DNA from: Escherichia coli
GTDB taxonomy: Bacteria; Pseudomonadota; Gammaproteobacteria; Enterobacterales; Enterobacteriaceae
NCBI RefSeq assembly: GCF_024223415.1
Contig: NZ_CP100500.1
Reading direction: 5' to 3' (one strand)
Length of the DNA: 64,000 nt
The position numbers and the translations under genes were made by a program. Below are positions 11,645 through 22,626 of the stretch, piece after piece (positions within the stretch are counted from its first letter, which is position 1; each line of letters starts with the position of its first letter). A model generated the notes under the pieces. That model ran no database searches. It worked only from the letters and a program-made list of their open reading frames with translations, and had not been told where the DNA came from.

Positions 11645-14600
11645 CTAATCTCTGTCACGGAAACTACCGACTGTCTGGCGGATACGGCGTTCCATTTCCG
11701 CACGGACGGCATCACCCACCATTTTTGCCAGTTCGCGCGGGTTTTGCGTGTGAACATCATGCAGGTGAATATGCAGTTCGCCAGTTAATCCCCATGGTGC
11801 CGCCTCACTCTGGCGCGGTCGGGGCGATGCGGGGGATATGGGCTGGCGCACAGCCTCAACCACCGGACGGGATGTTGCCGCCATCACTGGTGTCATTAGC
11901 GGGGAGAACGTCGGCATGACATCGTGAGTCATAACCGGTTTGATCACCGGCGGAACCACTGGCGTAATATTACCGGACAGTACCGGACGGACGACCGGAG
12001 GAATAACCGGCACATTATTCACGGACACCACCGGCTTCACGACCGGCGACACGTTCGCCGTGGTGGATATCAGCGGCGAAACACTGACAGGCGGTGGCGC
12101 TGGCAGCGGTGGCAACGAAGGCACACTGACCGACGGCACCTGCGGCAGTCTGACAGGTGGCTCACTGACACTACCCGGTAACAGGGAAGCTGCGCGGTTA
12201 AAGCGTTCCTCCTTCCACTCACCACGAACGGCCAGCGCTTCCGGCAGGTTTTTAAAGATAATATCGCCGGGACCAGCGCGTTTTTTCGCCTGTTTCGCCT
12301 CATCCAGCAGACCACCGGTGTTATCGACGATTTTGTTCAGGCGGCGCATAGTGCCGGTATTCTCCCCCGTCAGGGGTGGTTGCCCCCCTTTGGGTTTTTC
12401 GCCGTATTTTTTATCCTCGTCCTTTTTCGGCGGATTAATGACGTTAACATCCGCCAGAAGCATGGCAGCTTTCTCGTTCAGCAACTCCTTCTGTTTTAGT
12501 TCTTCCGCTTTTTTCCGGGCGCGCTCAACCGCTGACGGAATCAGCCCGAGTTTTTCCAGCACCCGGGTTAATGAGTCAATCAGCAGCGTAACCGGACCGG
12601 TCACCAGATTGCTGATAAACTCCCCGACCTTCTGCCCGAACGTCCGCCCGGCTTCCGTGCACTTGTCCAGCTCATCCTTTGTTGTGCTTACCGGCGCGAA
12701 CAAATCCACGAACCACTGCCACACACGCCCGATTGTCTGCCCGACATACTCAAACAATGGTCCCAGTGGTGCCACAGCCTCGCGCAGTGGCGTAAGCCCC
12801 TGCCACAGGCCGGACAAGAACCCGCCCACGACAGCCTTCAGCTGGTCCCAGTGCCGCCAGATAAGCACTGCCGCACCGACCAGTGTCGCCACCACAAGGC
12901 CCACCGGACTTAACAGAAAACCCAGCGCCCCGCCAAGTGCGCCCACCGCACCACTCACCATCCCCCACAGTGCGGGCAGACCTGACAGTCTGAGCGCCAG
13001 TATTCCGATACCGCGCCCCAGTGAAATCAGTGCGCCGCCAGGTGAAGTGAACGCAGCCAGCAGACCACCACGCAGCGCGCCAAGTCCCGCCTGCACACCA
13101 CGAAGCCGCCCCGCAACTACGCCCAGCAGTGCAGCAAACCGTCCGGCACCGGAGGTGATACCGACAAACAGCACGCGCCAGCCACCGATACCGCCCAGCG
13201 GACCACCGAGTACGCCGCGCAGCTGCGTCAGTAACGGCAGCGCACGACCGAGGCCGGATGTGCCGGTCAGCAGGGCAAACCCAAGACGCAGTTTTGCCAG
13301 CGGCCCCATCAACACACCAGTGGCAAGTGACAGCGCCCCCATGGCCGCAACCGCAGCCAGCAGTACACCACCGGCAATCAGCAGTTGTTTTGTCAGTTCA
13401 GGGTGCGCCTGAGCCAGCGCGGTGACTTTCGCAATAACCCGGGTGAACGACTGCGTGACAGAACGCAGCGGCCCGTCAACGAGGTCAGCGATACGGATAC
13501 GCAGTCCTTCCCATGCGCTGTTCAGTGATTTCAGGTCACCGTCCAGGTTATCAACCATAACACGGGCAGTCTGATTAAGTTCCCCGGTGGCCAGTTCAAT
13601 CTCCTGCGTAAGACGGGGAAGATTATTTTCCCCCGCCGCAGTGACAAGATTCATCAGGGAAACATAGGACTCCTGCCCGGCAATAGCCCTGAAAAAGGAG
13701 ACCTGCGCGGCATTACCGTATTTTCGGGTGGCCTGGTACAGCTCATTCAGGATATTTTCCATCCGGCGCATGTTCCCGTAAGCATCCTGCGTCTCCACGC
13801 CAAGCTCTTTCAGTGCCATTGCAGCGGCCTTCGGCGGATCAACCAGACGTGACAGACTGGCACGCAGCGCCGTACCTGCATCACTTCCACGGATCCCCAC
13901 ACTGCCAAGGACACCCGTCATGGCTGCCGCCTGTTCAAGGGACAGGCCAAGTGAAGCTGCAACCGGCCCCGTGTACTTCATGGTTTCACCCAGCGAACGG
14001 AGATCCGTATTGGTTCGTGTGAAGGTGGCGGCCAGCGTGTCACCCACGCGATCCATCTGGTCAGCGGACAGACCAAACTGTGTGAGGATATTCGAACTGA
14101 TATCGGCAGTCTGTCCCAGGTCCATCCCTGCAGCCATTGCCAGATCAAGCACGCCGGGTAGCGCCGCCTGTATGGCCTGTGGTGTGAAGCTGGCCATGGC
14201 AAGGAACGCCTGACCGCTGGCAGCATCACCGGCGGTAAACTGCGTTTCAGAGCCCAGCTTAATGGCCTGTTCGCGCAGCGCCTTAAACTGCGGACTGTTT
14301 TTGTCAATACGGGTCAGCGCCTGGACGCGCGACATCTCCTTACCAAAACTGACCGCCGGTTGCAGGAAACGTCCGGCCGCATAGCCGCCTGCCGCCGCCG
14401 TACCAACCGCCGTAAGTCCGACCGTTTTAAGTTTTCCCGCCGTCTCCTGAGCACGGGAATATTGCTGGCGTGCCTGCGTGACACGTGCCAGCGCCTGCCG
14501 TTCGCGTTCCAGCTGGTCGTTGTATTGCTGTGTTCGCCGTATGGCCTGTTGAATGGTGTTGTCACTGCCGGAAAGCGCAATACCGTGGCGCCGCAGCTCA

Positions 14601-14956
14601 CCACCCAGTTCGCGCATTCGCTGAACTTCACGCGCACGGACCTCATTGAGACGCTCAAGTTTGAGGCTCAAATCGTTCATCAGCTTTTTCTGTTTGTCAG
14701 ACAGCACGGTTCCGGCGCGCTGAATTTGCTGAAGTGCGCTTAACTGGCGTTGCGCCCTGACAATGCCGTTTCCGGCCTTGTTTGCAGCCTCGCGGGCGCG
14801 ATCAAATGAACGGGCGTGGCGTTCCAGGTTTTTGATCGCACCCTGCGTTCTCTGTATGGAGTCGCCAAGCTGGCCCATCATGCGACGGGCGTTTTCGGTG
14901 GGACGGGTCAGCCTGTCAACAGCGCTGAAGGCGACCCGTATATCAAGCGTTTTCAT
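11645..14956 (-). CDS. T: tail tape measure protein, P2 gpT family
   Basis: About 1100 aa: coiled-coil N-terminus, central Gly/Ala-rich TM-like region and a P/V-rich C-terminal repeat region. The ATG at 14956 overlaps the E' stop as in P2; the ORF-track GTG at 14992 is less likely. Confidence 0.85.
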   Translation of the reverse strand: MKTLDIRVAFSAVDRLTRPTENARRMMGQLGDSIQRTQGAIKNLERHARSFDRAREAANKAGNGIVRAQRQLSALQQIQRAGTVLSDKQKKLMNDLSLKLERLNEVRAREVQRMRELGGELRRHGIALSGSDNTIQQAIRRTQQYNDQLERERQALARVTQARQQYSRAQETAGKLKTVGLTAVGTAAAGGYAAGRFLQPAVSFGKEMSRVQALTRIDKNSPQFKALREQAIKLGSETQFTAGDAASGQAFLAMASFTPQAIQAALPGVLDLAMAAGMDLGQTADISSNILTQFGLSADQMDRVGDTLAATFTRTNTDLRSLGETMKYTGPVAASLGLSLEQAAAMTGVLGSVGIRGSDAGTALRASLSRLVDPPKAAAMALKELGVETQDAYGNMRRMENILNELYQATRKYGNAAQVSFFRAIAGQESYVSLMNLVTAAGENNLPRLTQEIELATGELNQTARVMVDNLDGDLKSLNSAWEGLRIRIADLVDGPLRSVTQSFTRVIAKVTALAQAHPELTKQLLIAGGVLLAAVAAMGALSLATGVLMGPLAKLRLGFALLTGTSGLGRALPLLTQLRGVLGGPLGGIGGWRVLFVGITSGAGRFAALLGVVAGRLRGVQAGLGALRGGLLAAFTSPGGALISLGRGIGILALRLSGLPALWGMVSGAVGALGGALGFLLSPVGLVVATLVGAAVLIWRHWDQLKAVVGGFLSGLWQGLTPLREAVAPLGPLFEYVGQTIGRVWQWFVDLFAPVSTTKDELDKCTEAGRTFGQKVGEFISNLVTGPVTLLIDSLTRVLEKLGLIPSAVERARKKAEELKQKELLNEKAAMLLADVNVINPPKKDEDKKYGEKPKGGQPPLTGENTGTMRRLNKIVDNTGGLLDEAKQAKKRAGPGDIIFKNLPEALAVRGEWKEERFNRAASLLPGSVSEPPVRLPQVPSVSVPSLPPLPAPPPVSVSPLISTTANVSPVVKPVVSVNNVPVIPPVVRPVLSGNITPVVPPVIKPVMTHDVMPTFSPLMTPVMAATSRPVVEAVRQPISPASPRPRQSEAAPWGLTGELHIHLHDVHTQNPRELAKMVGDAVRAEMERRIRQTVGSFRDRD

Positions 14957-15469
14957 GCTCTGCGTTCCCGCTGCGAAGGGCCGCCCGCTCACGCCAGGCG
15001 ACCACCTCGCCGGGATCCATCAGGAAGATTTCAGCGGGAGACCAGTTGAAAATAACGGCGATATCCGCCACAAAGTCTTCAATGTGCTCAAAGGGCACGA
15101 CGGTTATCAGCCTGCCGTCGCCGCCCCGCTCTTCCCGCCAGAGTCCTGACCGGCCAAAAAATTAACCGCCACCCCGCACAGCTGAATAAAATCAGCGGAC
15201 CCCATGCGCTTAAGCAGAACCTCGTCCAGTCGCGGCGAAGTGACGCGCGGGAGTAACTCAAACATCGCGTCCGTTTTCATGTTCAGCACGTCAAGCAGTG
15301 ACAGCCCGCGCAGTGAACCGGCCTGCTGTACAGCAGGCGTGATTTCCACATACGTGATTTTTTTGTTACCGAGCACAAGGGGCGTTTTCAGCGTCACGCC
15401 GCGCTCACTGGTCACGTCCGCCGCATCAGCACCGTCAGTAACAGGGGCAACAACCGGATTTTCTTTCAT
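14943..15469 (-). CDS. E': tail assembly chaperone E+E' (programmed -1 frameshift product)
   Basis: After the slippery TTTTTTG the -1 frame stays open to the TGA at 14943-14945. It encodes ...PFEHIEDFVADIAVIFNWSPAEIFLMDPGEVVAWRERAALRSG..., the usual E' tail. Confidence 0.75.
15107..15469 (-). CDS. E: tail assembly chaperone, P2 gpE family
   Basis: GAGG SD. LRGLSLLDVLNMKTDAMFELLPRVTSP resembles P2 gpE (LRGVSLAAVANSEVDALIKVLPRMTAP). Confidence 0.85.
   Translation of the reverse strand: MKENPVVAPVTDGADAADVTSERGVTLKTPLVLGNKKITYVEITPAVQQAGSLRGLSLLDVLNMKTDAMFELLPRVTSPRLDEVLLKRMGSADFIQLCGVAVNFLAGQDSGGKSGAATAG
15155..15161 (-). other. -1 ribosomal frameshift slippery heptamer T TTT TTG
   Basis: Plus strand reads CAAAAAA, which is TTTTTTG on the coding strand near the end of gpE. 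This is the same heptamer as the P2 E/E' site. Confidence 0.75.
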
Positions 15470-15519
15470 GCATAAAACCTCAAATCAGGGGGCGACGCCG
15501 CGCGCCGCCGTGGGAAACA

Positions 15520-16038
15520 TTAACCACCAAGACCAATCGCCGAGCGCACGCGGTCCGGGAAGACGTTTTTGCCGTCCTTGCGTTCGATGTGGTTCAGTAA
15601 ATCAATCTCCAGCACCGGACGGTCGTTAATGCTGAGTTTGTAGTAGGTACTCCTGACCGCATAGGTGTGAGACGTGACCTCACCCTGTTTTGCCTCCCCC
15701 GTATCAATTTCCGTCACGCGGCCGCGAAGCTCAATTTCATACAGGTCGCTCTGCTCTTCATCGTTGTAGTACTCACCGACAAAGCGCAGCAGCGTACCGT
15801 CGATCGTGCCGCCGTACTTAAGGAACAGTTCGCGGGTCGGCCCGCCCATGGTGAAACTCGCATCCAGCGCGCCGTCATCCAGACCAAGGTCGATATTCAC
15901 CGCGCCGGCCATACCACCACCGCGATAGGCTTCCGTTTTACGGGTCAGTTTGGGGGGCGTGAAGCCGGTCACCCTGCCAATCTGGTTCACCCCGTCAGTA
16001 AACAGCGTGAACACCCTGAGATTTTTTGGTACGGCCAT
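15520..16038 (-). CDS. FII: tail tube protein, P2 gpFII family
   Basis: 172 aa, the same length as P2 FII. TAATG overlap with the sheath stop. Confidence 0.9.
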   Translation of the reverse strand: MAVPKNLRVFTLFTDGVNQIGRVTGFTPPKLTRKTEAYRGGGMAGAVNIDLGLDDGALDASFTMGGPTRELFLKYGGTIDGTLLRFVGEYYNDEEQSDLYEIELRGRVTEIDTGEAKQGEVTSHTYAVRSTYYKLSINDRPVLEIDLLNHIERKDGKNVFPDRVRSAIGLGG

Positions 16039-17321
16039 TAAGCACCTCCAAGCGTCGCAAATGCAGGACCAAAGAATTCATCAGTAAACGTCTGGTAAAG
16101 TTCCATATCCTCAAGCGGCGGAACGGGCGTGTACTTGTAGCGGATACGCACGCGTCCCTGACGAAGTTCCGTGGTGCTGTTATCCACCACGTCATACCAG
16201 CACTCCGCACCAATGAGACGTCCTGACGTAACCAGCGCATCCAGTTTTGCGCGAATTGCGCTTAACACGTCTTTCACATTAGCAGGGGTCAGCGGGGCAT
16301 CAATCGTTTCAAACTGCGCTTCCGCAATGGAATCAGCCAGCACCTGAGCGGTTCGCGTGTACACCTCAAAGATATACGCCTTCGTTTCCGGCGTACGGTT
16401 GCCCCAGAAGCGGAAACCGTTACGGCAAATGATGGTAGTGATTTCCTTGTTGTTGAGATTGTTGGCATCGCTGTCTTCGGACTGAAGGGACCAGAACACC
16501 GGGCTGGAAATACCCAGCACATTTGTTACCGGCACGTTGGACAGCGATTTATGCCAGCCCTGTTCGTGGTCAATACGTGCACGTAAACCGCAGGCGTACG
16601 CCGCAGCCGGGAAGACCTCATTAGCGCCGGATTTCGGGTTATAGGCGATGAAGTCAGGCCAGAGCAGCATAAGTTCGCGCTCGTTAAATCTGGCGCGGTA
16701 GCTGATTGCATCAGCGGGCTTCTTGCAGTTGTGACAGCCCGCGTAGACAAATGCGCGAAGTTTTTCTGCAATTACACACAGGGATTTTGTGACAGCTTCA
16801 GTATCCAGTCCGGGAGCTGCGATGATGCGCGGACGGTAACCGATGGCATCATCCTGTTCAGCTATCAGAAGTGCATACATACCGGTATAATTACCGTCGC
16901 CATCCGTGCCACCAATGACATACTGGTCCTGCGTTTTGTGTGGGTATACAGGATGTGCATCTTCAGACTCATCAATACCAAAAAATGCCCTGTCTTCAGG
17001 ATCCAGATGACCGAATGATGTAACTCCTGTATCCGGGGCGCCCTGAGAACTGGTATCAGGAACGCGCACCACAATCACCTTCGTGCTCACCTGGTCGGCG
17101 ACAGCCTTAAGCGATTTGTAAAGCGTCCCCTTTGTGCCGGCCTTACCCAGCACATCACTGACGCGGGTCAGCAGTGTGGGTTTGTTCAGCGGGAACAGAG
17201 TTTCATCCGCGTCATCTGCCGTAGCCACAATACCAATAACACTGGAATCCACATCATTAATGGCGGTGGCAAGGCCGGTACTTTCCCTTACGCGCGCACC
17301 ATGAAAGCGTGTTTCACTCAT
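16038..17321 (-). CDS. FI: contractile tail sheath protein, P2 gpFI family
   Basis: MSETRFHGARV...IGIVATADDADETLFPLNKPTLLTRV...AGTKGTLYKSLKAVADQ is colinear with the remembered P2 FI N-terminus. The 49-codon upstream extension in the ORF track is rejected. Confidence 0.9.
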   Translation of the reverse strand: MSETRFHGARVRESTGLATAINDVDSSVIGIVATADDADETLFPLNKPTLLTRVSDVLGKAGTKGTLYKSLKAVADQVSTKVIVVRVPDTSSQGAPDTGVTSFGHLDPEDRAFFGIDESEDAHPVYPHKTQDQYVIGGTDGDGNYTGMYALLIAEQDDAIGYRPRIIAAPGLDTEAVTKSLCVIAEKLRAFVYAGCHNCKKPADAISYRARFNERELMLLWPDFIAYNPKSGANEVFPAAAYACGLRARIDHEQGWHKSLSNVPVTNVLGISSPVFWSLQSEDSDANNLNNKEITTIICRNGFRFWGNRTPETKAYIFEVYTRTAQVLADSIAEAQFETIDAPLTPANVKDVLSAIRAKLDALVTSGRLIGAECWYDVVDNSTTELRQGRVRIRYKYTPVPPLEDMELYQTFTDEFFGPAFATLGGA

Positions 17322-17394
17322 ATGTTTCACCCTTGTCTGGCTGGTTGATTTTGCGTAATCATTACCCACACACGCGGTAATCTCACCCCTTTGA

Positions 17395-17418
17395 TGTTGT
17401 CTCCTGACAGCGACAACA
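17395..17418. promoter_or_regulatory. Ogr/Delta-type late-promoter activator site (TGT-N12-ACA dyad)
   Basis: TGTTGTC-tcctgacagc-GACAACA. The inner TGT (17398-17400) and ACA (17413-17415) are exactly 12 bp apart. It lies in the divergent FI/D intergenic region, about 55 bp upstream of a plausible FI transcription start. Confidence 0.55.
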
Positions 17419-17482
17419 AAACAGCCATTCAACGCCGCTGCGGTGCATGAAACCATTACAGAACGCACCAGGAGAGAACACC

Positions 17483-18574
17483 ATGAAAGAGCTGTCAGTT
17501 ACCGTTCCGTCACCGGATATCGACATCACCATCAACAACAACACACTGGCAAACCTCACAGAGCGACTCATGACGCTGACCCTGACGGATAACCGGGCCT
17601 TTGAGGCAGACCGCGTCACCCTCACCCTTGACGATACGGACGGGCAGTTACAGTTGCCACCACGTGGCGCACGCCTGAGAGTGATGATTGGCTGGCGAGG
17701 AGAATCACTGGTTAACAAGGGCACCTACGTCGTTGATGAGGTTGCGTGGGAAGGACCTCCAGATAAACTGATCATCACCGCCAGCAGCGCAGATTTTCGG
17801 GAAGAGTTCAACGTGAGGCGGGAGGTATCCTGGCACGACGTGACCGTAAAACAGGTTGTGTCAGCCATCGCTCACCGCTACGGCCTGAAGACACAGATAA
17901 GCGAAATCCTCATGGATATCGAAATTGACCACGCTGACCAGACCGAAGAGAGCGATATATCCTTCCTGACCCGCATGGCTGAAATGCTGGGTGCGATTGC
18001 CACCGTAAAAAACGGCAGCCTGTTATTCATTCTGCCGGGTGGCGGAACCGGGCCGGACGGAAGAGCCCTGCCTTCGTTCGCCATTACCCGCAGCAGCGGC
18101 GACAGTCACCGCTTTCGCATTGCTGACCGTGATGCGTATACGGGGGTCCGGGCGCACTGGCTCGATCTGAAGTTCGGGCAAAAGAAAAAAGTGAACGTGA
18201 AGCGACGCAGGGAAGCCGGGAAACAGAAACAGGAGAAGAGCAGCAGCCGGGAGGGTGATTACATGGAAGGCGCGGAAGGGAACGTCTACGTTCTGCGCAG
18301 GACTTACCAGAATGAAGAAACCGCACGACGTGCAGCTGCGGCAAAGTGGCAGGAGTTACAGCGGGGAGCAGCGGCATTCTCCATCACTCTGGCACGGGGT
18401 CGTGCCGACCTGTACCCCGAAATGCACGGCAGGGTAACAGGTTTTAAAAGCGAGGTGGACAATCAGGACTGGATTATTGCCAGGGTGGAGCACATCATAG
18501 ATGAAAGCGGCTTCACCACACAACTGGAGCTGGAAGCGAAAATCCCCGAATGGATAGCAGATTCAGGCGGATAA
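17483..18574 (+). CDS. D: late control/tail protein, P2 gpD family
   Basis: GGAGAG SD. LMTLTLTDNRAFEADRVTLTLDDTDGQLQLPPRGA is the hallmark gpD motif. Confidence 0.85.
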   Translation: MKELSVTVPSPDIDITINNNTLANLTERLMTLTLTDNRAFEADRVTLTLDDTDGQLQLPPRGARLRVMIGWRGESLVNKGTYVVDEVAWEGPPDKLIITASSADFREEFNVRREVSWHDVTVKQVVSAIAHRYGLKTQISEILMDIEIDHADQTEESDISFLTRMAEMLGAIATVKNGSLLFILPGGGTGPDGRALPSFAITRSSGDSHRFRIADRDAYTGVRAHWLDLKFGQKKKVNVKRRREAGKQKQEKSSSREGDYMEGAEGNVYVLRRTYQNEETARRAAAAKWQELQRGAAAFSITLARGRADLYPEMHGRVTGFKSEVDNQDWIIARVEHIIDESGFTTQLELEAKIPEWIADSGG

Positions 18575-18617
18575 AATTAAAATGAGCCATCTCCACTCAG
18601 CCAGATAAGGAGAAGCC

Positions 18618-18869
18618 ATGTTCCGTTGTCCCCTATGCGGTGCATCCGCACGTATCCGCACCAGTCGCAATGAAAATGATTCAGGCACAGTTCGCCTGAA
18701 GTACTACCAGTGCAATAACCTCGAATGCGGGATCGGCTTTACCACACTGGAGGGTTTTAACAAATTCACATCAAAACGCGCCCCGTCGCCGCAGGGTACA
18801 GAGCGGATACCGTGGGAAGATTTTCCGGGATCTCACAGGGGGAATACTCAGATTAATCTTGATATTTAA
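18618..18869 (+). CDS. ogr: late gene transcription activator, Ogr/Delta zinc-finger family
   Basis: MFRCPLCGASARIRTSR...YYQCNNLECGIGFTTLE matches P2 Ogr (MFHCPLCQHAAHARTSR...YHQCQNVNCSATFITYE) with the CxxC...CxxxxC arrangement. Confidence 0.9.
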   Translation: MFRCPLCGASARIRTSRNENDSGTVRLKYYQCNNLECGIGFTTLEGFNKFTSKRAPSPQGTERIPWEDFPGSHRGNTQINLDI

Positions 18870-18918
18870 GAACAATAATCAGGTTGAGAGGACATCATAA
18901 GGCAAGTAGATTAACGGC

Positions 18919-19013
18919 AGATACTTTCCCGCAACCACGGGCAAGTATTTAATTATCCATGATGAAATATGACCTAAATTGTTTTTTGCCCGCCGGAAAG
19001 CGGGCATTTTTTT
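18919..19013 (+). ncRNA. predicted sRNA, A-type copy A0 (directly after ogr)
   Basis: Promoter TTGAGA (18884-18889), 17-bp spacer, TAGATT (18907-18912). Internal hairpin CCCG-caacca-CGGG. Terminator GCCCGC-cggaaa-GCGGGC (18988-19005) followed by a T-run. The 5' end is estimated. Confidence 0.45.
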
Positions 19014-19227
19014 ATTCTTTTGTGGTTATGGGGTCATCAGGAACCACGTGCAGATTATATTTTTGTTTTTTTGGCGTTCCTCCGGCAGCAACGAGTTCAT
19101 CAATAAGACACTGACACGCCTGAACATCCCGGGCATGTCTTAGTTTCACCTTTATTGATTTAACCTTATCCTCACCGGAGGAGAAATGCAGTTCAATCTC
19201 AATATCGTTTCTTCGGAACAATCTCAT
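19012..19227 (-). CDS. hypothetical small protein R1 (71 aa), the only intact copy of a triplicated ORF
   Basis: MRLFRRNDIEIELHFSSGEDKVK.... The start with an SD is conserved in the two decayed copies (AGGAGG in copy 2). The stop abuts the bidirectional terminator. No family recognised. Confidence 0.4.
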   Translation of the reverse strand: MRLFRRNDIEIELHFSSGEDKVKSIKVKLRHARDVQACQCLIDELVAAGGTPKKQKYNLHVVPDDPITTKE

Positions 19228-19321
19228 ACGCCCCCTGAATATATCAGAAATACTAGTATCGAAAAATGAGAAAACAGTTAGACAGGAGAAACATATTAAC
19301 ACAAATCATTTATACCTATAG

Positions 19322-19339
19322 ATGAAATTATAATTTCAT
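19322..19339. promoter_or_regulatory. perfect 18-bp palindrome ATGAAATTATAATTTCAT between divergent R1 and B1
   Basis: Read directly from the sequence. Degenerate versions sit at the same place in unit 2 (~20497) and unit 3 (~21143). Confidence 0.4.
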
Positions 19340-19371
19340 TCATGAATATGATAGATAACTATATTGTGAAC

Positions 19372-19478
19372 AAAATGAAAAATGGCTAAATTAAAAATGG
19401 GCATGGAGGAATGCCCGGTTATCAATATAATGTGACGTAGATCATTGTTTTGCCCGCCGGAGAGCGGGCATTTTTTTT
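19372..19478 (+). ncRNA. predicted sRNA, B-type copy B1
   Basis: -10 TATATT at 19360-19365. Hairpin GGGCAT-ggagga-ATGCCC. Terminator hairpin 19452-19469 followed by T8. Ends are estimated. Confidence 0.35.
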
Positions 19479-19582
19479 GCGCCTGCCATCGAGGCGCCTT
19501 CCCTGGCGCACACAAAGCAGCCCTGATTTTCCATGAAAACTTCAGGGTTGAGCTGCGGGCACAAAGTGAGTAGATTAGCTAC

Positions 19583-19679
19583 GGGTACCTCCCCCTGACA
19601 ACAGGAAGGGTGTCCATTATCCATGATATACAAACGAAAAGTCTTGTTTTTTGCCCGCCGAAGCGCGGGCATTTTTTTA
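19583..19679 (+). ncRNA. predicted sRNA, A-type copy A1 (immediately upstream of hok locus 1)
   Basis: TTGAGC (19548-19553), 17-bp spacer, TAGATT (19571-19576). 5' hairpin around CCUGACAACAGG. Terminator 19653-19670 followed by T7. Confidence 0.45.
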
Positions 19680-19723
19680 TGCATCAGACAAGATACAGCC
19701 CACCCCAACTGACACCTGAAATA

Positions 19724-19752
19724 TTGCCGCAACAAAAAGAAACAGTTAAATT
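19724..19752 (+). promoter_or_regulatory. candidate hok/mok mRNA promoter
   Basis: TTGCCG (19724-19729), 16/17-bp spacer, TTAAAT/TAAATT (19746-19752). The predicted start coincides with GGGUGCCUU (19759-19767), which is complementary to a 3' element (20102-20110). Confidence 0.5.
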
Positions 19753-19794
19753 ACGCGCGGGTGCCTTTCGGCTGATGGCCGGAGGGAAAACCTG

Positions 19795-19864
19795 AAGGCC
19801 GGATGTGGAAAGGCCCCGGAAAACATTTCTGTTTAACCGAGGCCCTAACCGCATTACCTTGACA
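19795..19864 (-). ncRNA. sok: candidate Sok-like antisense RNA (ends approximate)
   Basis: Minus-strand promoter TTGCTC (19899-19894), 17-bp spacer, TAACCT (19876-19871), overlapping the hok SD. The transcript would cover the mok start at 19805, as in R1 hok/sok. No terminator could be resolved. Confidence 0.35.
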
Positions 19865-20038
19865 AGTGAAAGGTTAGCGCCTCTCCGGAAAAGGAGCAAG
19901 TGCTATGTCGCAAAAATCGCTTACGGCCATCACGTTCTGCGTGACGGCAATCCTCATCATCTGGATATTGCACGGTTCGCTGTGCGAAATACGGATGAGC
20001 TTCTGGGGAGCGGAGTTTGCGGCGTTCTTACAATGTAA
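19805..20038 (+). CDS. mok: mok-like overlapping reading frame
   Basis: 77-codon ORF with a GAAGG SD. It starts 100 nt upstream of hok and overlaps almost all of it in another frame, which is the hok/mok architecture. Confidence 0.5.
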   Translation: MERPRKTFLFNRGPNRITLTSERLAPLRKRSKCYVAKIAYGHHVLRDGNPHHLDIARFAVRNTDELLGSGVCGVLTM

Positions 20039-20045
20039 GAAGTAA
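19905..20045 (+). CDS. hok: Hok/Gef-family type I toxin (46 aa)
   Basis: AAGGAG SD. MSQKSLTAITFCVTAILIIWILHGSLCEIRMSFWGAEFAAFLQCKK has one TM plus the SLCE...AAF motif of Hok proteins; closest by memory to HokA. Confidence 0.8.
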   Translation: MSQKSLTAITFCVTAILIIWILHGSLCEIRMSFWGAEFAAFLQCKK

Positions 20046-20134
20046 GGAAACCGCGACGGGGGAGCAATCCCCCGTCAATCGGTTGCCAGGGTAAGGTCGA
20101 TAAGGCACCCTATCTCACAGACATGAACAAACAA

Positions 20135-20167
20135 ACCCGCAGCATAAAAACTGCGGGTTTTCTTTTT
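20135..20167 (+). terminator. intrinsic terminator of hok locus 1
   Basis: ACCCGCAG-cataaaaa-CTGCGGGT followed by TTTTCTTTTT. Confidence 0.7.
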
Positions 20168-20298
20168 GGTGTCCTCACCGACTTGAAACAGTGATCAGAC
20201 TATAAGACAAAGCCCGCAATGTTGCGGGCTTACTCTACCTCTCGAAAATGTGGTCACTGCGTGGACATACGCTGATACAAATCCTTTATATCAATAAA

Positions 20299-20397
20299 TT
20301 AAATCTTTGTTTTTTTCATCAACAATGATTTAACCTTATCCTCACCGGAGGAGAAATGCAGTTCAATCTCAATATCGTTTCTGTGGAACAGCCTCAT
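20299..20397 (-). pseudogene. truncated copy R2 of the small ORF (32 codons)
   Basis: MRLFHRNDIEIELHFSSGEDKVKS is identical in pattern to R1; it then diverges and stops. An AGGAGG SD is retained. Confidence 0.4.
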
Positions 20398-20544
20398 AAG
20401 ACAACCTCCTGAATTCATCAGAAACACAGTCAACTGAAAACCAGAAAGCAGACAAACAGTGGACACACATTAATACAAATCATTTATACCTATAGATGAA
20501 ATTGCAGTTTCATCTATAACATGACAGGTAACAATATTGTGAAA

Positions 20545-20651
20545 AAACTCAAAACTCGTTAGATTAAAGACGGACAGAGCAATGCTACTTTATCAATAAC
20601 ATGTAACCTGTACTTCCTTATTTTGCCCGCCGAAGCACGGGCATTTTTTTT
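20545..20651 (+). ncRNA. predicted sRNA, B-type copy B2 (divergent body)
   Basis: -10 AATATT near 20533. Terminator 20625-20642 followed by T8. The body differs from B1/B3. Confidence 0.3.
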
Positions 20652-20755
20652 GCGCCTGCCATCGAGGCGCCTTCCCTGGCGCACACAAAGCAGCCCTGAT
20701 TTTCCATGAAAACTTCAGGGTTGAGCCAAAAGCACAAAGACAGTAGATTAACCAC

Positions 20756-20849
20756 GGGTGCCTTCCACCTGACAACAGGAAGGGTGTCCAGTATCAATGA
20801 CAGACAACTCACATTGCTGTTTTGCCCGCCGGAAAGCGGGCATTTTTTT
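20756..20849 (+). ncRNA. predicted sRNA, A-type copy A2
   Basis: TTGAGC (20721-20726), 17-bp spacer, TAGATT (20744-20749). Hairpin CCTTCC-acctgacaaca-GGAAGG. Terminator 20824-20841 followed by T7. Confidence 0.45.
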
Positions 20850-20981
20850 ATTCTTTTGTGGTTATTGGGTCATCAGGAACAACATGCAGATTATGCTTTG
20901 ATTTTTTTGGTGTTATTACAGCAGCAACGAGTTTATTAATAAGACACTGACATGCCTGAACATCCCTGACATATCATAATA

Positions 20982-21053
20982 TCACTTTATTTTTTTAGCT
21001 TGTCCTTTCTGGAGCAGAAATATCTCAACATCGTTTCTGTGGAACAACCTCAT
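20982..21053 (-). pseudogene. decayed copy R3 of the small ORF (stop after 23 codons, internal deletions)
   Basis: MRLFHRNDVEIFLLQKGQAKKIK*. Flanking DNA is still alignable by eye to the R1 gene. Confidence 0.35.
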
Positions 21054-21192
21054 TTGCCCTTGAATGTATCATAAATATCAGCATCGGAAAACCAACAGCA
21101 ATACAGAAGAAACATGTTAATGCAAATCACTTATACCTATAGATGAAATTACAGTTTTGTTCATAAATATGATAAGTAACTATATTGTGAAT

Positions 21193-21300
21193 AAAATGAA
21201 AACTAGCTAAATTAAACGTGGGCATGGTGGAATGCCTCGTAATCAATAATACATGATCCGTACTTCCTTGTTTTGCCCGCCGGAAAGCGGGCATTTTTTT
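21193..21300 (+). ncRNA. predicted sRNA, B-type copy B3
   Basis: -10 TATATT at 21181-21186. Hairpin GGGCAT-ggtgga-ATGCC. Terminator 21275-21292 followed by T7. Confidence 0.35.
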
Positions 21301-21404
21301 GGCGGTTACCATCGCCTCACCTTCCTGGTTCACATGAAGCAACCCTGATTTTCCATGAAAACTTCAGGGTTGAGACAAAAGCACAAAGACAGTAGATTAA
21401 CCAC

Positions 21405-21497
21405 GGGTACCTTCCACCTGACAACAGGAAGGCTGTCCAGTATCAATGACAGACAACTCACATTGCTGTTTTGCCCGCCGGAAAGCGGGCTTTTTTT
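21405..21497 (+). ncRNA. predicted sRNA, A-type copy A3
   Basis: TTGAGA (21370-21375), 17-bp spacer, TAGATT (21393-21398). Terminator 21473-21490 followed by T7. Confidence 0.45.
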
Positions 21498-21601
21498 GGC
21501 AGTTATCATAGCCGCACCTTCCTGGCACATATGAAGCAACCCTGATTTTCCATGAAAACTTCAGGGTTGAGACAAAAGCACAAAAACAGTAGATTAACCA
21601 C

Positions 21602-21699
21602 GGGTGCCTGCCACCTGACAACAGGAAGGGTGTCCATTATCCATGATATACAAACGAAAAGTCTTGTCTTTTGCCCGCCAAAGCGCGGGCATTTTTTTA
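21602..21699 (+). ncRNA. predicted sRNA, A-type copy A4 (immediately upstream of hok locus 2)
   Basis: TTGAGA (21567-21572), 17-bp spacer, TAGATT (21590-21595). The 3' half is identical in pattern to A1. Terminator 21673-21690 followed by T7. Confidence 0.45.
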
Positions 21700-21909
21700 T
21701 GCATCAGACAAGATACAGCCCACCCCAACTGACACCTGAAATATTGCCGCAACAAAAAGAAACGGGTGCCTTTCGGCTGATGGCCGGAGGGAAAACCTGA
21801 AGGCCGGATGTGGAAAGGCCCCGGAAAACATCTGTGTTTAACCGAGGCCTGACCCTTCCTACCGTGACAAGTGGAAGGTTAGCGCCTCTTTGTAAAAGGA
21901 GCAAGCGCT

Positions 21910-22050
21910 ATACCGCAAAAAACGATTATTGTTGGCATTTTATGCCTGACAATAACCCTGGTCATCTGGATGGTCCACGATTCGTTATGTGAATTCAGCT
22001 TTGATATCTGGGGAGCGCGTTTTGCGGCGTTCTTGCAGTGTAAACCGTAA
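21910..22050 (+). pseudogene. hok: hok-family toxin gene with ATG>ATA start and deleted promoter
   Basis: (I)PQKTIIVGILCLTITLVIWMVHDSLCEFSFDIWGARFAAFLQCKP. The first codon is ATA where locus 1 has ATG. A 16-bp deletion removes the -10 element present in locus 1. Confidence 0.65.
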
Positions 22051-22200
22051 GAAACCGCAGCGGGGGAGAAATTCCCCGCTATCCGGTTGTTGGGGTGGGC
22101 CGATATGGCGCCCTTTCCCTGTAGAGACAAAACAAAAAACCAGATTTGCCCGCCATTGAGAGGGCTTTTTTGTCACCCTCACCAGTGAGGGCATCATCAT

Positions 22201-22422
22201 TCAGAGGCGCGTAAGCCACCCGGCGTTAACATCCTGCCTGTCAACCCTGGCCGCAGAGTCTGAACGGCAGGTACCGGAAGGAGTACCAAAAACATCCCTG
22301 ACAAGTTCCGCCACCTTCCCGATATCATCAGGTGTCACATTCCTCACCTCGGCAGTGATCCGTGGCGTACCATCATCGTTAACAAGAGTGGCTTTAAAGC
22401 TGGTGCGAAGGGAAAACAACAT
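22201..22422 (-). CDS. hypothetical small protein (~73 aa)
   Basis: GGGAGGGG SD upstream of clustered ATGs. No family recognised. Not part of the serS region as I remember K-12. Confidence 0.3.
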   Translation of the reverse strand: MLFSLRTSFKATLVNDDGTPRITAEVRNVTPDDIGKVAELVRDVFGTPSGTCRSDSAARVDRQDVNAGWLTRL

Positions 22423-22626
22423 CAACATCCCCTCCCTTTGGTTCGTTGCACTGACGGCACGACACCATCAGGAAAAAGAAAAGCCCACAACGTCAGTATT
22501 GTGGACTTTTTTCTTCAAAGATGGACATTATCTGGACACATGAAAATAAAATCCATTTATTTTCATATAGTTAAGTACCATGCAAAAGCGCCCGCAGGCG
22601 CTTTTTAGATTCAGAAAAATTAGGTA

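Follow-up and report, generated by a model that had tools for sequence, protein, structure and literature searches.

Organization of the locus

The window is a 64,000-nucleotide stretch of Escherichia coli DNA (contig NZ_CP100500.1). A P2-like (Peduoviridae) prophage of ~37 kb, the nearest sequenced relatives of which are Xuanwuvirus P88 and its kin, has its att-proximal cargo end at 18881–22598 of the window. This segment holds an array that starts 13 nt past the stop codon of ogr and has the order ogr-A0-R1(−)-B1-A1-hok1-R2′(−)-B2-A2-R3′(−)-B3-A3-A4-hok2′. It comprises one live and one dead hok locus, eight toxin-less units (A and B) and three truncated copies of a phage gene (R). The features are listed below.

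18618–18869, + strand: ogr, late activator of the P2-like prophage (Pfam Ogr_Delta, E = 4.9e-14; RefSeq annotation of identical loci)
18884–19013, + strand: A0 unit; promoter TTGAGA-17-TAGATT (18884–18912), terminator 18987–19006 plus U7
19012–19227, − strand: R1, 71-codon ORF with its own AGGGGG ribosome-binding-like site and ATG
19322–19339, no strand: perfect 18-bp palindrome ATGAAATTATAATTTCAT, between the divergent R1 and B1
19364–19478, + strand: B1 unit; promoter TTGTGA-17-TAAATT, predicted RNA ~19399–19478
19521–19678, + strand: A1 unit; promoter TTGAGC-17-TAGATT (19548–19576), predicted RNA ~19583–19678
19724–20167, + strand: hok1 locus; promoter TTGCCG-17-TAAATT (19724–19752), terminator 20133–20160
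20299–20397, − strand: R2′, R copy cut to 32 codons; convergent with hok1
20537–20651, + strand: B2 unit; promoter TTGTGA-17-TAGATT and terminator kept, predicted RNA start near 20572
20694–20849, + strand: A2 unit; palindrome, promoter, predicted RNA ~20756–20849
20848–21053, − strand: R3′, R pseudogene with a stop after 23 codons and 8-nt and 2-nt deletions; convergent with A2
21185–21300, + strand: B3 unit; predicted RNA start near 21221
21343–21497, + strand: A3 unit; tail class as A2, predicted RNA start near 21405
21540–21698, + strand: A4 unit; tail class as A1, predicted RNA start near 21602
21701–22172, + strand: hok2′, dead locus; terminator of the A/B type 22146–22165, Rfam sok model 48.1 bits
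21925–21952, − strand: predicted Sok2 antisense promoter TTGTCA-16-AATAAT inside hok2′ (10 of 12 consensus positions; consensus match only)
22201–22428, − strand: 75-aa ORF, last cargo segment before att (from the ORF list and relatives)
22584–22598, no strand: 15-bp att core AAAAGCGCCCGCAGG, overlapping the serS terminator

The first-pass annotation had placed three copies of a composite unit of R, B, A and hok at 18881–22090. Direct-repeat families do span whole modules there, not hairpins alone, and in the self-alignment similarity reaches far past the terminator hairpins, with an overall likeness between copies of 76–95%. The A copies are 66–95% identical across 174 nt in register, hok1 and hok2′ 82% over 231 nt, the A0 end plus R1 and the A2 end plus R3′ 87% over 169 nt, and the R–B spacer plus B 85% over 155 nt. 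Mean column identity in the alignments is 81% for A0–A4, 86% for B1–B3 and 72% for R1–R3. The natural module, however, is a convergent pair in which hok or A faces R. The 18-bp palindrome reported earlier is present; it is longer in the second unit (20491–20518) and degraded in the third, and is a candidate operator.

Terminator-like sites number 17, compared with 4.6 ± 2.0 in shuffles. All eight terminators named previously were located, on the + strand, and a ninth copy (22146, at the end of hok2′) had been missed. The motif TTGCCCGCC-N7-GGGC occurs nine times in the window, always on the + strand and within 18986–22165; the chance expectation is 0.24, and nine were reached in 0 of 100 shuffles. 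Nine one-family terminators, all on the + strand between ogr and a serS gene that is convergent with the array, could serve as an insulator that halts late D–ogr read-through into the cargo and serS, with the promoters being incidental. We consider this highly improbable: one or two terminators would suffice, a promoter-like element and a hairpin are found at a fixed distance before each terminator and are conserved with it as a unit, and even minimal arrays have four complete units.

The hok loci and the R genes

The hok1 locus is apparently intact, as had been proposed. Its hok ORF (19905–20045, 46 aa) matches Pfam HOK_GEF above the cut-off, a mok-like ORF lies at 19805–20038, and promoter and terminator are in place. 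The mRNA start, GGGTGCCTT at 19759, is complementary to a 3′ element, AAGGCACCC (20102–20110). At the DNA level the locus is 81–95% identical to prophage hokW-type loci, and it scores 46.2 bits against the Rfam sok model, under the gathering score of 59. It is a member of the hok/sok family (prophage hokW-sokW of Sakai prophage 5, PMC8621323; P88 hok), with which it shares the Hok ORF, the overlapping mok-like frame, the leader structure, the 5′/3′ complementarity and the terminator.

The second locus, hok2′, is dead, again as first described. A 15-nt deletion removes the −10 element and the start codon has changed from ATG to ATA (21910–21912), the 50-codon frame being otherwise open to 22050. 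Its Sok-target hairpin, CCTTCCTACCGTGACAAGTGGAAGG, lies at 21854–21878. Pedersen and Gerdes reportedly described, in 1999, chromosomal hok loci of E. coli that had decayed via insertion elements, point mutations and rearrangements. Like these, hok2′ is a dead locus: promoter and start codon are gone, and a predicted antisense promoter persists.

R1 had been called intact, at 71 aa. Its frame is open, yet it matches only profile positions 72–127 (E = 4.9e-12), the C-terminal 44%, of the 128-aa phage family phrog_14142 (role unassigned), and we rejected it as an intact gene. The N-terminal half is replaced by B-side sequence, and the C-terminal extension differs from that of phrog_14142. The stop after 32 codons in R2′, and both the stop after 23 codons and the deletions in R3′, are as the first reading had them; the frame is still open in one of the three R copies. 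An intact R ahead of a B2-type unit is present in loci L017 and L031. Full-length phrog_14142 homologues are convergent with hok at the ends of P2-like and HP1-like prophages in E. coli, Salmonella and Yersinia. They share with R1 the att-proximal position, whereas here R1 is partial and R2′ and R3′ are pseudogenes.

Derivation of the A and B units from hok

Judged by sequence comparison, A0–A4 are hok loci from which the toxin core has been deleted internally. From hok they retain the promoter, the initial bases of the mRNA, the Sok-target hairpin (as matched in hok2′), a short tail and a hok2′-type terminator, and are without a toxin ORF. A2 and the hok mRNA begin with the same sequence, GGGTGCCTT. 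Over the promoter and 5′ end, A2 and hok1 give a Smith–Waterman score of 40, compared with 21.8 ± 3.2 for shuffled sequences (reached in 0 of 300). The A2 and A3 hairpins score 26 against the hok2′ Sok-target hairpin (shuffles 14.1–14.6 ± 2.0–2.1; z 5.5–5.9; 0–1 of 500), and the A/B terminator regions score 30–40 against that of hok2′ (~15 ± 2.6; 0 of 500). The hairpin match is specific to hok2′, as no resemblance was found to the Sok-target hairpins of hok1, L008, L013 or 933W. In P88, hok lies directly after ogr. The P88 hok promoter, TTGCCG-17-TAGATT, can be aligned with that of A0, and both are equally far from ogr. A0 is convergent with R1, overlaps the R1 stop codon and has a predicted RNA of ~18919–19013 with a 5′ hairpin (fold z −3.2). 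In A1, a conserved 27-nt palindrome (19521–19547) lies directly against the −35 element.

B1–B3 have promoter and terminator in common with A and a different body, and appear to derive from hok in part. The B1 promoter aligns to that of hok1, with scores for B1 and B3 of 30 compared with 19.5–19.8 ± 2.5–2.7 in shuffles (0–1 of 300). The predicted B1 RNA consists of a 5′ hairpin (GGGCAU/AUGCCC), a tail and a terminator with U8; B2 has lost the 5′ hairpin. Under a covariance model trained on A, B reaches 32–42 bits, only slightly more than unrelated loci picked for the same terminator (32–33 bits). That A, and partly B, descend from hok, as the promoter, hairpin and terminator comparisons reveal, had been missed in the first reading.

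The A/B units are from hok loci, yet they are not toxin–antitoxin systems. Promoter, transcript start, one leader hairpin (in A) and terminator are shared with the hok/sok family, whereas toxin ORF, mok frame and antisense promoter are absent, the length is ~95 nt rather than ~400 nt, and eight copies stand in tandem. The decayed chromosomal forms described are single loci, whereas the array holds a repeated, uniform internal-deletion product; the literature searched contains no report of such a repeated product keeping promoter, 5′ end, target hairpin and terminator.

The resemblance of the A hairpin to the hok2′ Sok-target hairpin, UGACAA loop included, would also suit a decoy, in which the A1–A4 hairpin binds Sok-type RNAs (from hok1, the orphan Sok2 or other hokW-type loci) and buffers or triggers Hok, for example at prophage induction. 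Complementarity of A2–A4 to the predicted Sok2/Sok1 exceeds that of shuffles (z −2.5 to −3.4; 0–4 of 200), the Sok2 promoter (a consensus match) is intact within the dead locus, and hokW-sokW helps phage release, with sokW acting in part Hfq-dependently (PMC8621323). We nonetheless think this improbable. Common descent accounts for the complementarity, which is split into blocks of 3–6 bp, and A0 and B1–B3 show none; the likeness to the hairpin of the live hok1 falls short of significance, the Sok ends are predicted from a consensus promoter only, and titrating the antitoxin of the prophage's own live toxin would be risky.

Prophage setting, distribution and origin

The 15-bp att core is found on both sides of the prophage, which extends from the integrase gene to the array; the second copy lies beside the integrase gene, adjoining dmsA. 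Of 5426 E. coli genomes, 5075 contain, as one contiguous sequence, the empty site rebuilt from the dmsA flank, the core and the serS flank. The array DNA is accessory, as the first-pass annotation held, but not the separate 3.7-kb serS–dmsA unit that it envisaged: we rejected an independent island, as the array sits inside the prophage, between ogr and the att core. The same array start (A0, R, B and at least one further A) follows ogr in prophages of this type at ihfA, copA and zapB, giving four chromosomal sites in total, and an ogr-A0-R-B-A… start is also present in IMG/VR and metagenome contigs. The array is part of a mobile element, an outcome that the first-pass annotation had set against its own reading, although the array itself is undescribed in the literature searched. 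The 75-aa ORF, kept at ~90% DNA identity in copA-integrated relatives, has no family match in Pfam, PHROG or PADLOC.

Copy number, to which attention had been drawn earlier, varies: related prophages hold one, two or three units. The small units are carried by only 30 of 5426 complete E. coli genomes and are absent from the 185,579 species representatives searched. An identical 89-nt run (19465–19553 = 20638–20726) accounts for the 1173-bp difference from the two-unit form. The modules have been shuffled. In relatives, the place of the array is taken by a convergent pair, a hok/sok type I toxin–antitoxin locus facing the 128-aa phrog_14142 gene. Here this pair has probably been duplicated, internally deleted and shuffled via recombination between related prophages, giving a live hok, a dead hok, three N-terminally truncated phrog_14142 copies and eight ORF-less units. 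With R2′, R3′ and hok2′ dead and relatives at different unit numbers, the array looks like the duplication followed by erosion of coding parts that was first proposed.

The units as candidate small-RNA genes

We propose, with a probability of roughly 0.6, that the array is prophage cargo of hok-derived, toxin-less units working as small-RNA genes. All eight units have a σ70-type promoter, a 5′ hairpin (except B2), a variable single-stranded tail and an intrinsic terminator with 7–8 U. TTG-N19–21-TA[GA]ATT followed by terminator and U run is found in 17 of 17 distinct copies (13 loci), with unit promoters matching the consensus at only 8–9 of 12 positions. Variation peaks in the tail (mean pairwise difference 0.275, compared with 0.10–0.18 elsewhere), and the −10 element shows none; the −10 conservation alone is not significant, and promoter and terminator conservation is statistically inseparable from chance retention or gene conversion. 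The earlier statement that RNA-like parts keep promoters and terminators while protein parts die thus holds as a description, with weak statistics. One pair in the aligned set is fully compensated; the copies are so similar that covariation lends little support.

We infer from these elements that each unit would be transcribed in the lysogen from its hok-type σ70 promoter and would yield an RNA of 80–100 nt that ends at the strong intrinsic terminator. The U-rich stretch ahead of the terminator and the U7–8 tail would make up the kind of module that Hfq-bound small RNAs typically have. Pairing may fall to the variable tail, which has several classes, four in the smallest array (A0, B, A2-type and A1-type). 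Targets, and a benefit to phage or host, would follow from such a role; a search of the prophage itself for targets of the unit RNAs found none. The units match no Rfam family, and no matching account was found in the literature searched; the best Rfam matches, AgvB (23 bits versus 56) and RyhB (24 versus 55), are far below threshold and mostly terminator-based.

ORFs of 25–80 codons can be drawn through several units (19623–19712, 21643–21732 and the MKTSGL… frames), and the units might instead encode short peptides, such as new type I toxins. This is the least probable reading. No frame is conserved from copy to copy (that of MKTSGL ends after 14 codons in A1), and the frames have no ribosome-binding sites and run through the terminators. 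The Pfam scan covered R1, Hok1, Ogr and the 75-aa ORF.

A more serious alternative, possible though we hold it unlikely, is that the units are neutral debris of hok loci minus the toxin core and that their transcripts, if any, are noise. Toxin loss is easily tolerated or favoured, promoters and terminators could persist through too little time or gene conversion, and the 89-nt identity would reflect ongoing recombination or conversion. The neighbouring R2′, R3′ and hok2′ are all dead, B2 is without its hairpin and the conservation contrast is weak; given the narrow spread and the pseudogene neighbours, recent decay fits as well as function. However, paralogues that differ by 6–27% all keep the hexamers at 17-nt spacing, the stem and the U run (17 of 17), the distinct tail classes are found again in prophage lineages integrated at other sites, and A0, the hairpin of which differs from that of A1–A4 at most positions, has kept a stable fold.

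As small-RNA genes, the units would resemble the Hfq-associated small RNAs of prophages in pathogenic E. coli (AgvB, AsxR, HnrS, PasA–D, StxS and DicF), which are likewise short and prophage-borne, with their own promoter, intrinsic terminator, U tail and strain-variable copy number. Small RNAs of the AgvB/DicF type belong to lambdoid prophages and gain extra copies from several prophages, whereas here eight lie in tandem in one P2-like prophage. Tandem sibling small RNAs such as OmrA/B, PrrF1/F2, LhrC1–5 and Qrr are core-genome regulators with known targets. The array units share with them adjacent paralogues, a conserved scaffold and a diverging, here putative, pairing region, and differ in that their origin from a toxin mRNA is still visible.

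Prophage setting of the array

The array lies between ogr, the last late gene of a P2-like (Peduoviridae) prophage, and the attachment site. In order it reads ogr–A0–R1(−)–B1–A1–hok1–R2′(−)–B2–A2–R3′(−)–B3–A3–A4–hok2′, in which A0–A4 and B1–B3 are eight units without an ORF, R1–R3′ are copies of a truncated phage gene, and hok1 and hok2′ are a live and a dead hok locus. Its boundaries are:

18618–18869, plus strand: ogr
22584–22598: 15-bp att core, AAAAGCGCCCGCAGG, in the serS terminator; the other copy is at the integrase/dmsA end

P2-type late genes for capsid, tail, gpD and ogr lie upstream of the array, and an integrase gene adjoining dmsA opens the prophage in an identical genome. When the outer flanks are joined, the rebuilt empty site is found uninterrupted in 5075 of 5426 complete E. 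coli genomes. Given the two att core copies and this contiguous empty site, the 3.7 kb that the first-pass annotation, a reading of the sequence alone, took as accessory therefore forms the att-proximal end of a prophage of ~37 kb and is not a separate serS–dmsA island.

The part composed of R, B and A is carried by only 30 of the 5426 genomes, always 3′ of ogr in the same prophage type (30/30 carriers), with the carrier prophages integrated at serS, ihfA, copA or zapB. The nearest sequenced phages are Xuanwuvirus P88 and its relatives, with tail genes ~78% identical. No match to the R–B–A part was found in the phage collection, distant mode included. Among species-representative genomes the A promoter pattern had zero matches, and the terminator pattern occurred at 55 loci, none of which (0/55) had A- or B-like sequence past the terminator. 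In a lambdoid-type region of Kalamiella sp. (L059, 1245–2800, minus strand), found through the terminator pattern alone, five GCCCGCC...GGCGGGC-U-run terminators lie 100–130 nt apart with one gap of ~1 kb; they may mark small transcription units in a tandem set of unrelated origin.

In the prophage, the genes for tail sheath, tube, gpE and tape measure are on the minus strand (11645–17468) and gpD and ogr on the plus strand (17447–18869), a relative orientation inverted with respect to P2, as in Xuanwuvirus. RefSeq lists the tape-measure gene as an incomplete pseudogene in identical prophages; in the window its frame is open over 1115 codons (11645–14992). At the other end, 22465–22524 holds a 26-nt inverted repeat, AAAAGCCCACAACGTCAGTATTGTGGACTTTTTT, a terminator on either strand, between a 75-aa ORF and the att core. 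That ORF gave only a sub-threshold match in Pfam and none in PADLOC.

Repeated modules and their genes

The first-pass annotation had described a composite unit (small ORF, B-RNA, A-RNA and hok) present three times in states of decay. Self-comparison confirms the repeated modules, with direct-repeat families that span them entirely: four A copies repeated in register over 174 nt (66–95% identity), hok1 and hok2′ over 231 nt (82%), the end of A0 with R1 and the end of A2 with R3′ over 169 nt (87%), and the R–B spacer with B over 155 nt (85%). Mean column identity in MAFFT alignments is 81% for A0–A4, 86% for B1–B3 and 72% for R1–R3. The eight shared-stem terminators called earlier are all where they had been placed. 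The pattern TTGCCCGCC-N7-GGGC occurs nine times in the 64 kb, always on the plus strand within 18986–22165 (chance expectation 0.24), the ninth copy being the end of hok2′. A full-text literature search found no paper with the terminator sequence.

The two hok loci comprise the following features:

19724–20167: hok1
19759: hok1 5′ end, GGGTGCCTT, complementary to the 3′ element
19805–20038: mok-like ORF overlapping hok1
20102: hok1 3′ element, AAGGCACCC
21701–22172: hok2′
21925–21952, minus strand: near-consensus Sok promoter in dead hok2′ (10/12 positions, consensus scan)

The hok of unit 1, called intact, indeed encodes a 46-aa Hok/Gef ORF (29 bits to Pfam HOK_GEF, for which the cut-off is 22). 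The locus covers positions 1–157 of the Rfam sok model with a sub-threshold score of 46.2 bits (gathering score 59), and the consensus scan lists no minus-strand promoter in hok1, where the part equivalent to the hok2′ Sok promoter is at ~19920–19950. The region is ~89–92% identical to prophage hok loci, several of them annotated as Hok/Gef. The hok of unit 3 is dead, as previously read: a 15-nt deletion has removed the −10 element and the ATG has become ATA. Its frame of 50 codons is otherwise open, no toxin is expressible and the antisense promoter is the sole one left. Both loci are of ordinary kinds, hok1 a prophage hok locus and hok2′ a dead hok.

The copies of R are all incomplete. R2′ and R3′ stop after 32 and 23 codons, respectively, in agreement with the earlier reading, which had taken R1 as intact. 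R1 is instead a 5′-truncated remnant assigned to phrog_14142 (PHROGs; 128 aa, function unknown), matching only positions 72–127 of the 128-position profile; it retains an ATG preceded by a ribosome-binding-like site. In a full HMMER scan and a profile search, R falls in a small family in Enterobacterales, whose full-length members have 126–133 aa and include separately called homologues of 128 and 133 aa. In loci from both E. coli and Yersinia, the usual annotation is a 57-aa ORF but the frame is open further upstream, and in the E. coli locus L008 (4795–5174) the extended frame reaches a GTG start, giving about 126–133 aa. The usual 57-aa calls start at an internal Met, and the conserved frame is ~70 codons longer upstream (L008, L013, proteins P0013, P0014 and P0017, and others). 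Across Enterobacterales prophages these calls look like an annotation error of a systematic kind. The annotation is corrected both for a family usually called as fragments and for R1 as an incomplete gene. Neither R1 nor full-length phrog_14142 belongs to a Pfam family or is found by PADLOC; the AlphaFold model has a pLDDT of 61, Foldseek gave no PDB match with E<0.3, and the fold is uninformative.

In P2-like and HP1-like prophages, full-length phrog_14142 genes are located at the att end and face a convergent hok gene, and no A or B was found near them. The A0→R1, hok1→R2′ and A2→R3′ pairs keep this ancestral geometry of hok converging on R.

Anatomy and descent of the A and B units

Each A or B unit has a sigma-70-type promoter (TTGAG(A/C)-17-TAGATT in A, TTGTGA-17-TA(A/G)ATT in B), a GGG-type transcript start and a predicted 5′ hairpin, the last of which is lost in B2. 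A single-stranded tail containing UAUC(C/A)AU ends in UUGUUUUUU or GUUUU just 5′ of the terminator stem, and U7–8 follows the stem. With its own promoter, a U-rich stretch, an intrinsic terminator and a long U tail, the sequence has the layout of an Hfq-type sRNA gene. There is no ORF conserved between copies and no toxin ORF. Having no toxin, the units are not toxin–antitoxin systems, unlike type I hok/sok loci, which pair a toxin ORF with an antisense antitoxin.

Nor do A and B belong to any curated RNA family: a search of 17.5–23.5 kb with Rfam 15 (E up to 1) returned none at the gathering threshold, and the sub-threshold matches (E 0.17–0.6) were mostly to terminators. AgvB, RyhB, Hrs1 and Thr/Trp leader identities were rejected as terminator-driven noise, other matches being the sok leader. 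The lambdoid prophage sRNAs HnrS, Pas, AgvB and AsxR differ from the units in context and arrangement; HnrS and Pas were judged different from their genomic setting, in lambdoid prophages, and their prevalence.

We rate the array as a tandem set of toxin-less, small-RNA-like units, hok-derived, in a P2-like prophage, and give this account of anatomy, location and descent a probability of about 0.8. That the units descend from hok is a new finding, drawn from sequence comparison. The A2 promoter and first bases (...CAGTAGATTAACCACGGGTGCCTTCC) align with those of hok1 (...CAGTTAAATTACGCGCGGGTGCCTTTCG) with a score of 40 against 21.8 ± 3.2 (0/300 shuffles). The hairpin of A, CCTTCC-ACC-TGACAACAGGAAGG, resembles one in the hok2′ leader, CCTTCCTACCGTGACAAGTGGAAGG (z 5.5–5.9), which is in the part of hok2′ that Sok2, its predicted antisense RNA, would cover, and the terminators of A and B match that of hok2′ (0/500 shuffles). 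In P88, hok directly follows ogr, and the A0 promoter occupies the exact position after ogr of the P88 hok promoter (TTGCCG-17-TAGATT).

For B, the promoter aligns to that of hok1. The B body and the hairpin after the hok stop codon are alike by eye, a resemblance that is not significant (z ≤1.4). A covariance model built from A recovers every A copy and scores B slightly above unrelated loci with the same terminator, a margin so small that the model adds no independent proof of A–B kinship. Given the lack of a hok-like body and the weak covariance score, B is therefore linked through its promoter, short tail motif and terminator.

In A1–A4 the −35 element is immediately adjoined by a near-palindrome of 27 nt, CCCTGATTTTCCATGAAAACTTCAGGG:

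19521–19547, 20694–20720, 21343–21369 and 21540–21566: near-palindrome upstream of A1, A2, A3 and A4

It is the best conserved stretch of A1–A4, is absent from A0 and is a candidate operator. Neither this palindrome nor the one preceding B is related to the prophage immunity operator, GATAACCGTACGGTTATC. On the minus strand, 19399–19416 has a terminator-like score, since the B1 5′ hairpin is followed there by AUUUUUAAUU; this is probably an accident of the adjacent AT-rich −10 region.

Transcription and possible function

Transcription of the units in the cell is predicted and seems likely; a selected function is slightly less probable than not. Promoter spacing, −10 element, terminator and U run are preserved in each of 17 distinct copies (13 loci) at a divergence of 6–27%; the tail is the most variable segment and falls into recurring classes; and A0 has diverged in sequence yet its hairpin is stable. 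These features count in favour of real small RNAs. Counting against are weak covariation, the hairpin loss in B2, the narrow distribution, the pseudogene neighbours and conservation contrasts that are marginal.

Comparison of the tails with the prophage's own 47-kb region gave trivial self-antisense matches and no target, and unconstrained duplex folding against the hok and R1 mRNAs was uninformative except for the A0/R1 3′ overlap. The complementarity of A2–A4 to Sok2 and Sok1, the predicted antisense RNAs of hok2′ and hok1, exceeds that of shuffles (z −2.5 to −3.4), owing to shared descent. It is compatible with a putative role as Sok decoys. Under this reading, which we regard as improbable, A1–A4 would be "anti-antitoxin" RNAs: hok leader copies that have no toxin, retain the hairpin recognised by Sok and titrate Sok-type antisense RNAs. 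If true, the prophage would set the threshold for Hok release, for example for faster lysis at induction, or alternatively would interfere with hok/sok loci of competing elements, and the units would document a clear, datable birth of regulatory sRNA genes from a toxin mRNA. Prophage release is aided by hokW–sokW, and the action of sokW is partly Hfq-dependent (PMC8621323).

If expressed, the A and B units would form a tandem prophage sRNA family with an origin readable from sequence, and possibly RNA decoys against Sok-type antitoxins. A type I locus would have lost its toxin and kept promoter, 5′ end, antisense-target hairpin and terminator, before multiplying and diversifying its single-stranded tail. 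The origin of new bacterial sRNA genes, a long-standing question, would then be testable in one locus, because intermediate forms exist in related prophages. If the units are debris, the array is a tidy record of hok/sok decay and shuffling at the cargo end of a P2-like phage.

Array variants in related prophages

Forms of the array in carrier prophages
Smallest form (L002, L003, L005, L016, L028): A0–R–B–A–A, followed by HicAB or by the last cargo segment; the sequence covered in L016 and L028 ends with the second A
Two-unit form (L004): window minus 1173 bp (A1–hok1–R2′–B2)
Intact R before B2 (L031, L017): A0–R–B2, in L031 then A2 and unit 3; the contig of L017 breaks off in the opening bases of the following A
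Three-unit form (window and identical or near-identical copies, 25/30 carrier genomes): full array order

An 89-nt run is identical at 19465–19553 and 20638–20726 and is an evident place for the crossover behind the two-unit form. Across all carriers the left part (ogr, A0 and R) is 98–100% identical and the right part of the array differs by 11–23%, which fits recombination between related prophages. In the ihfA-integrated prophage of L002 (7004–7604), a HicA/HicB toxin–antitoxin pair follows the A–A pair in place of the last cargo segment; small toxin–antitoxin cargo is therefore swapped in the stretch from array to att.
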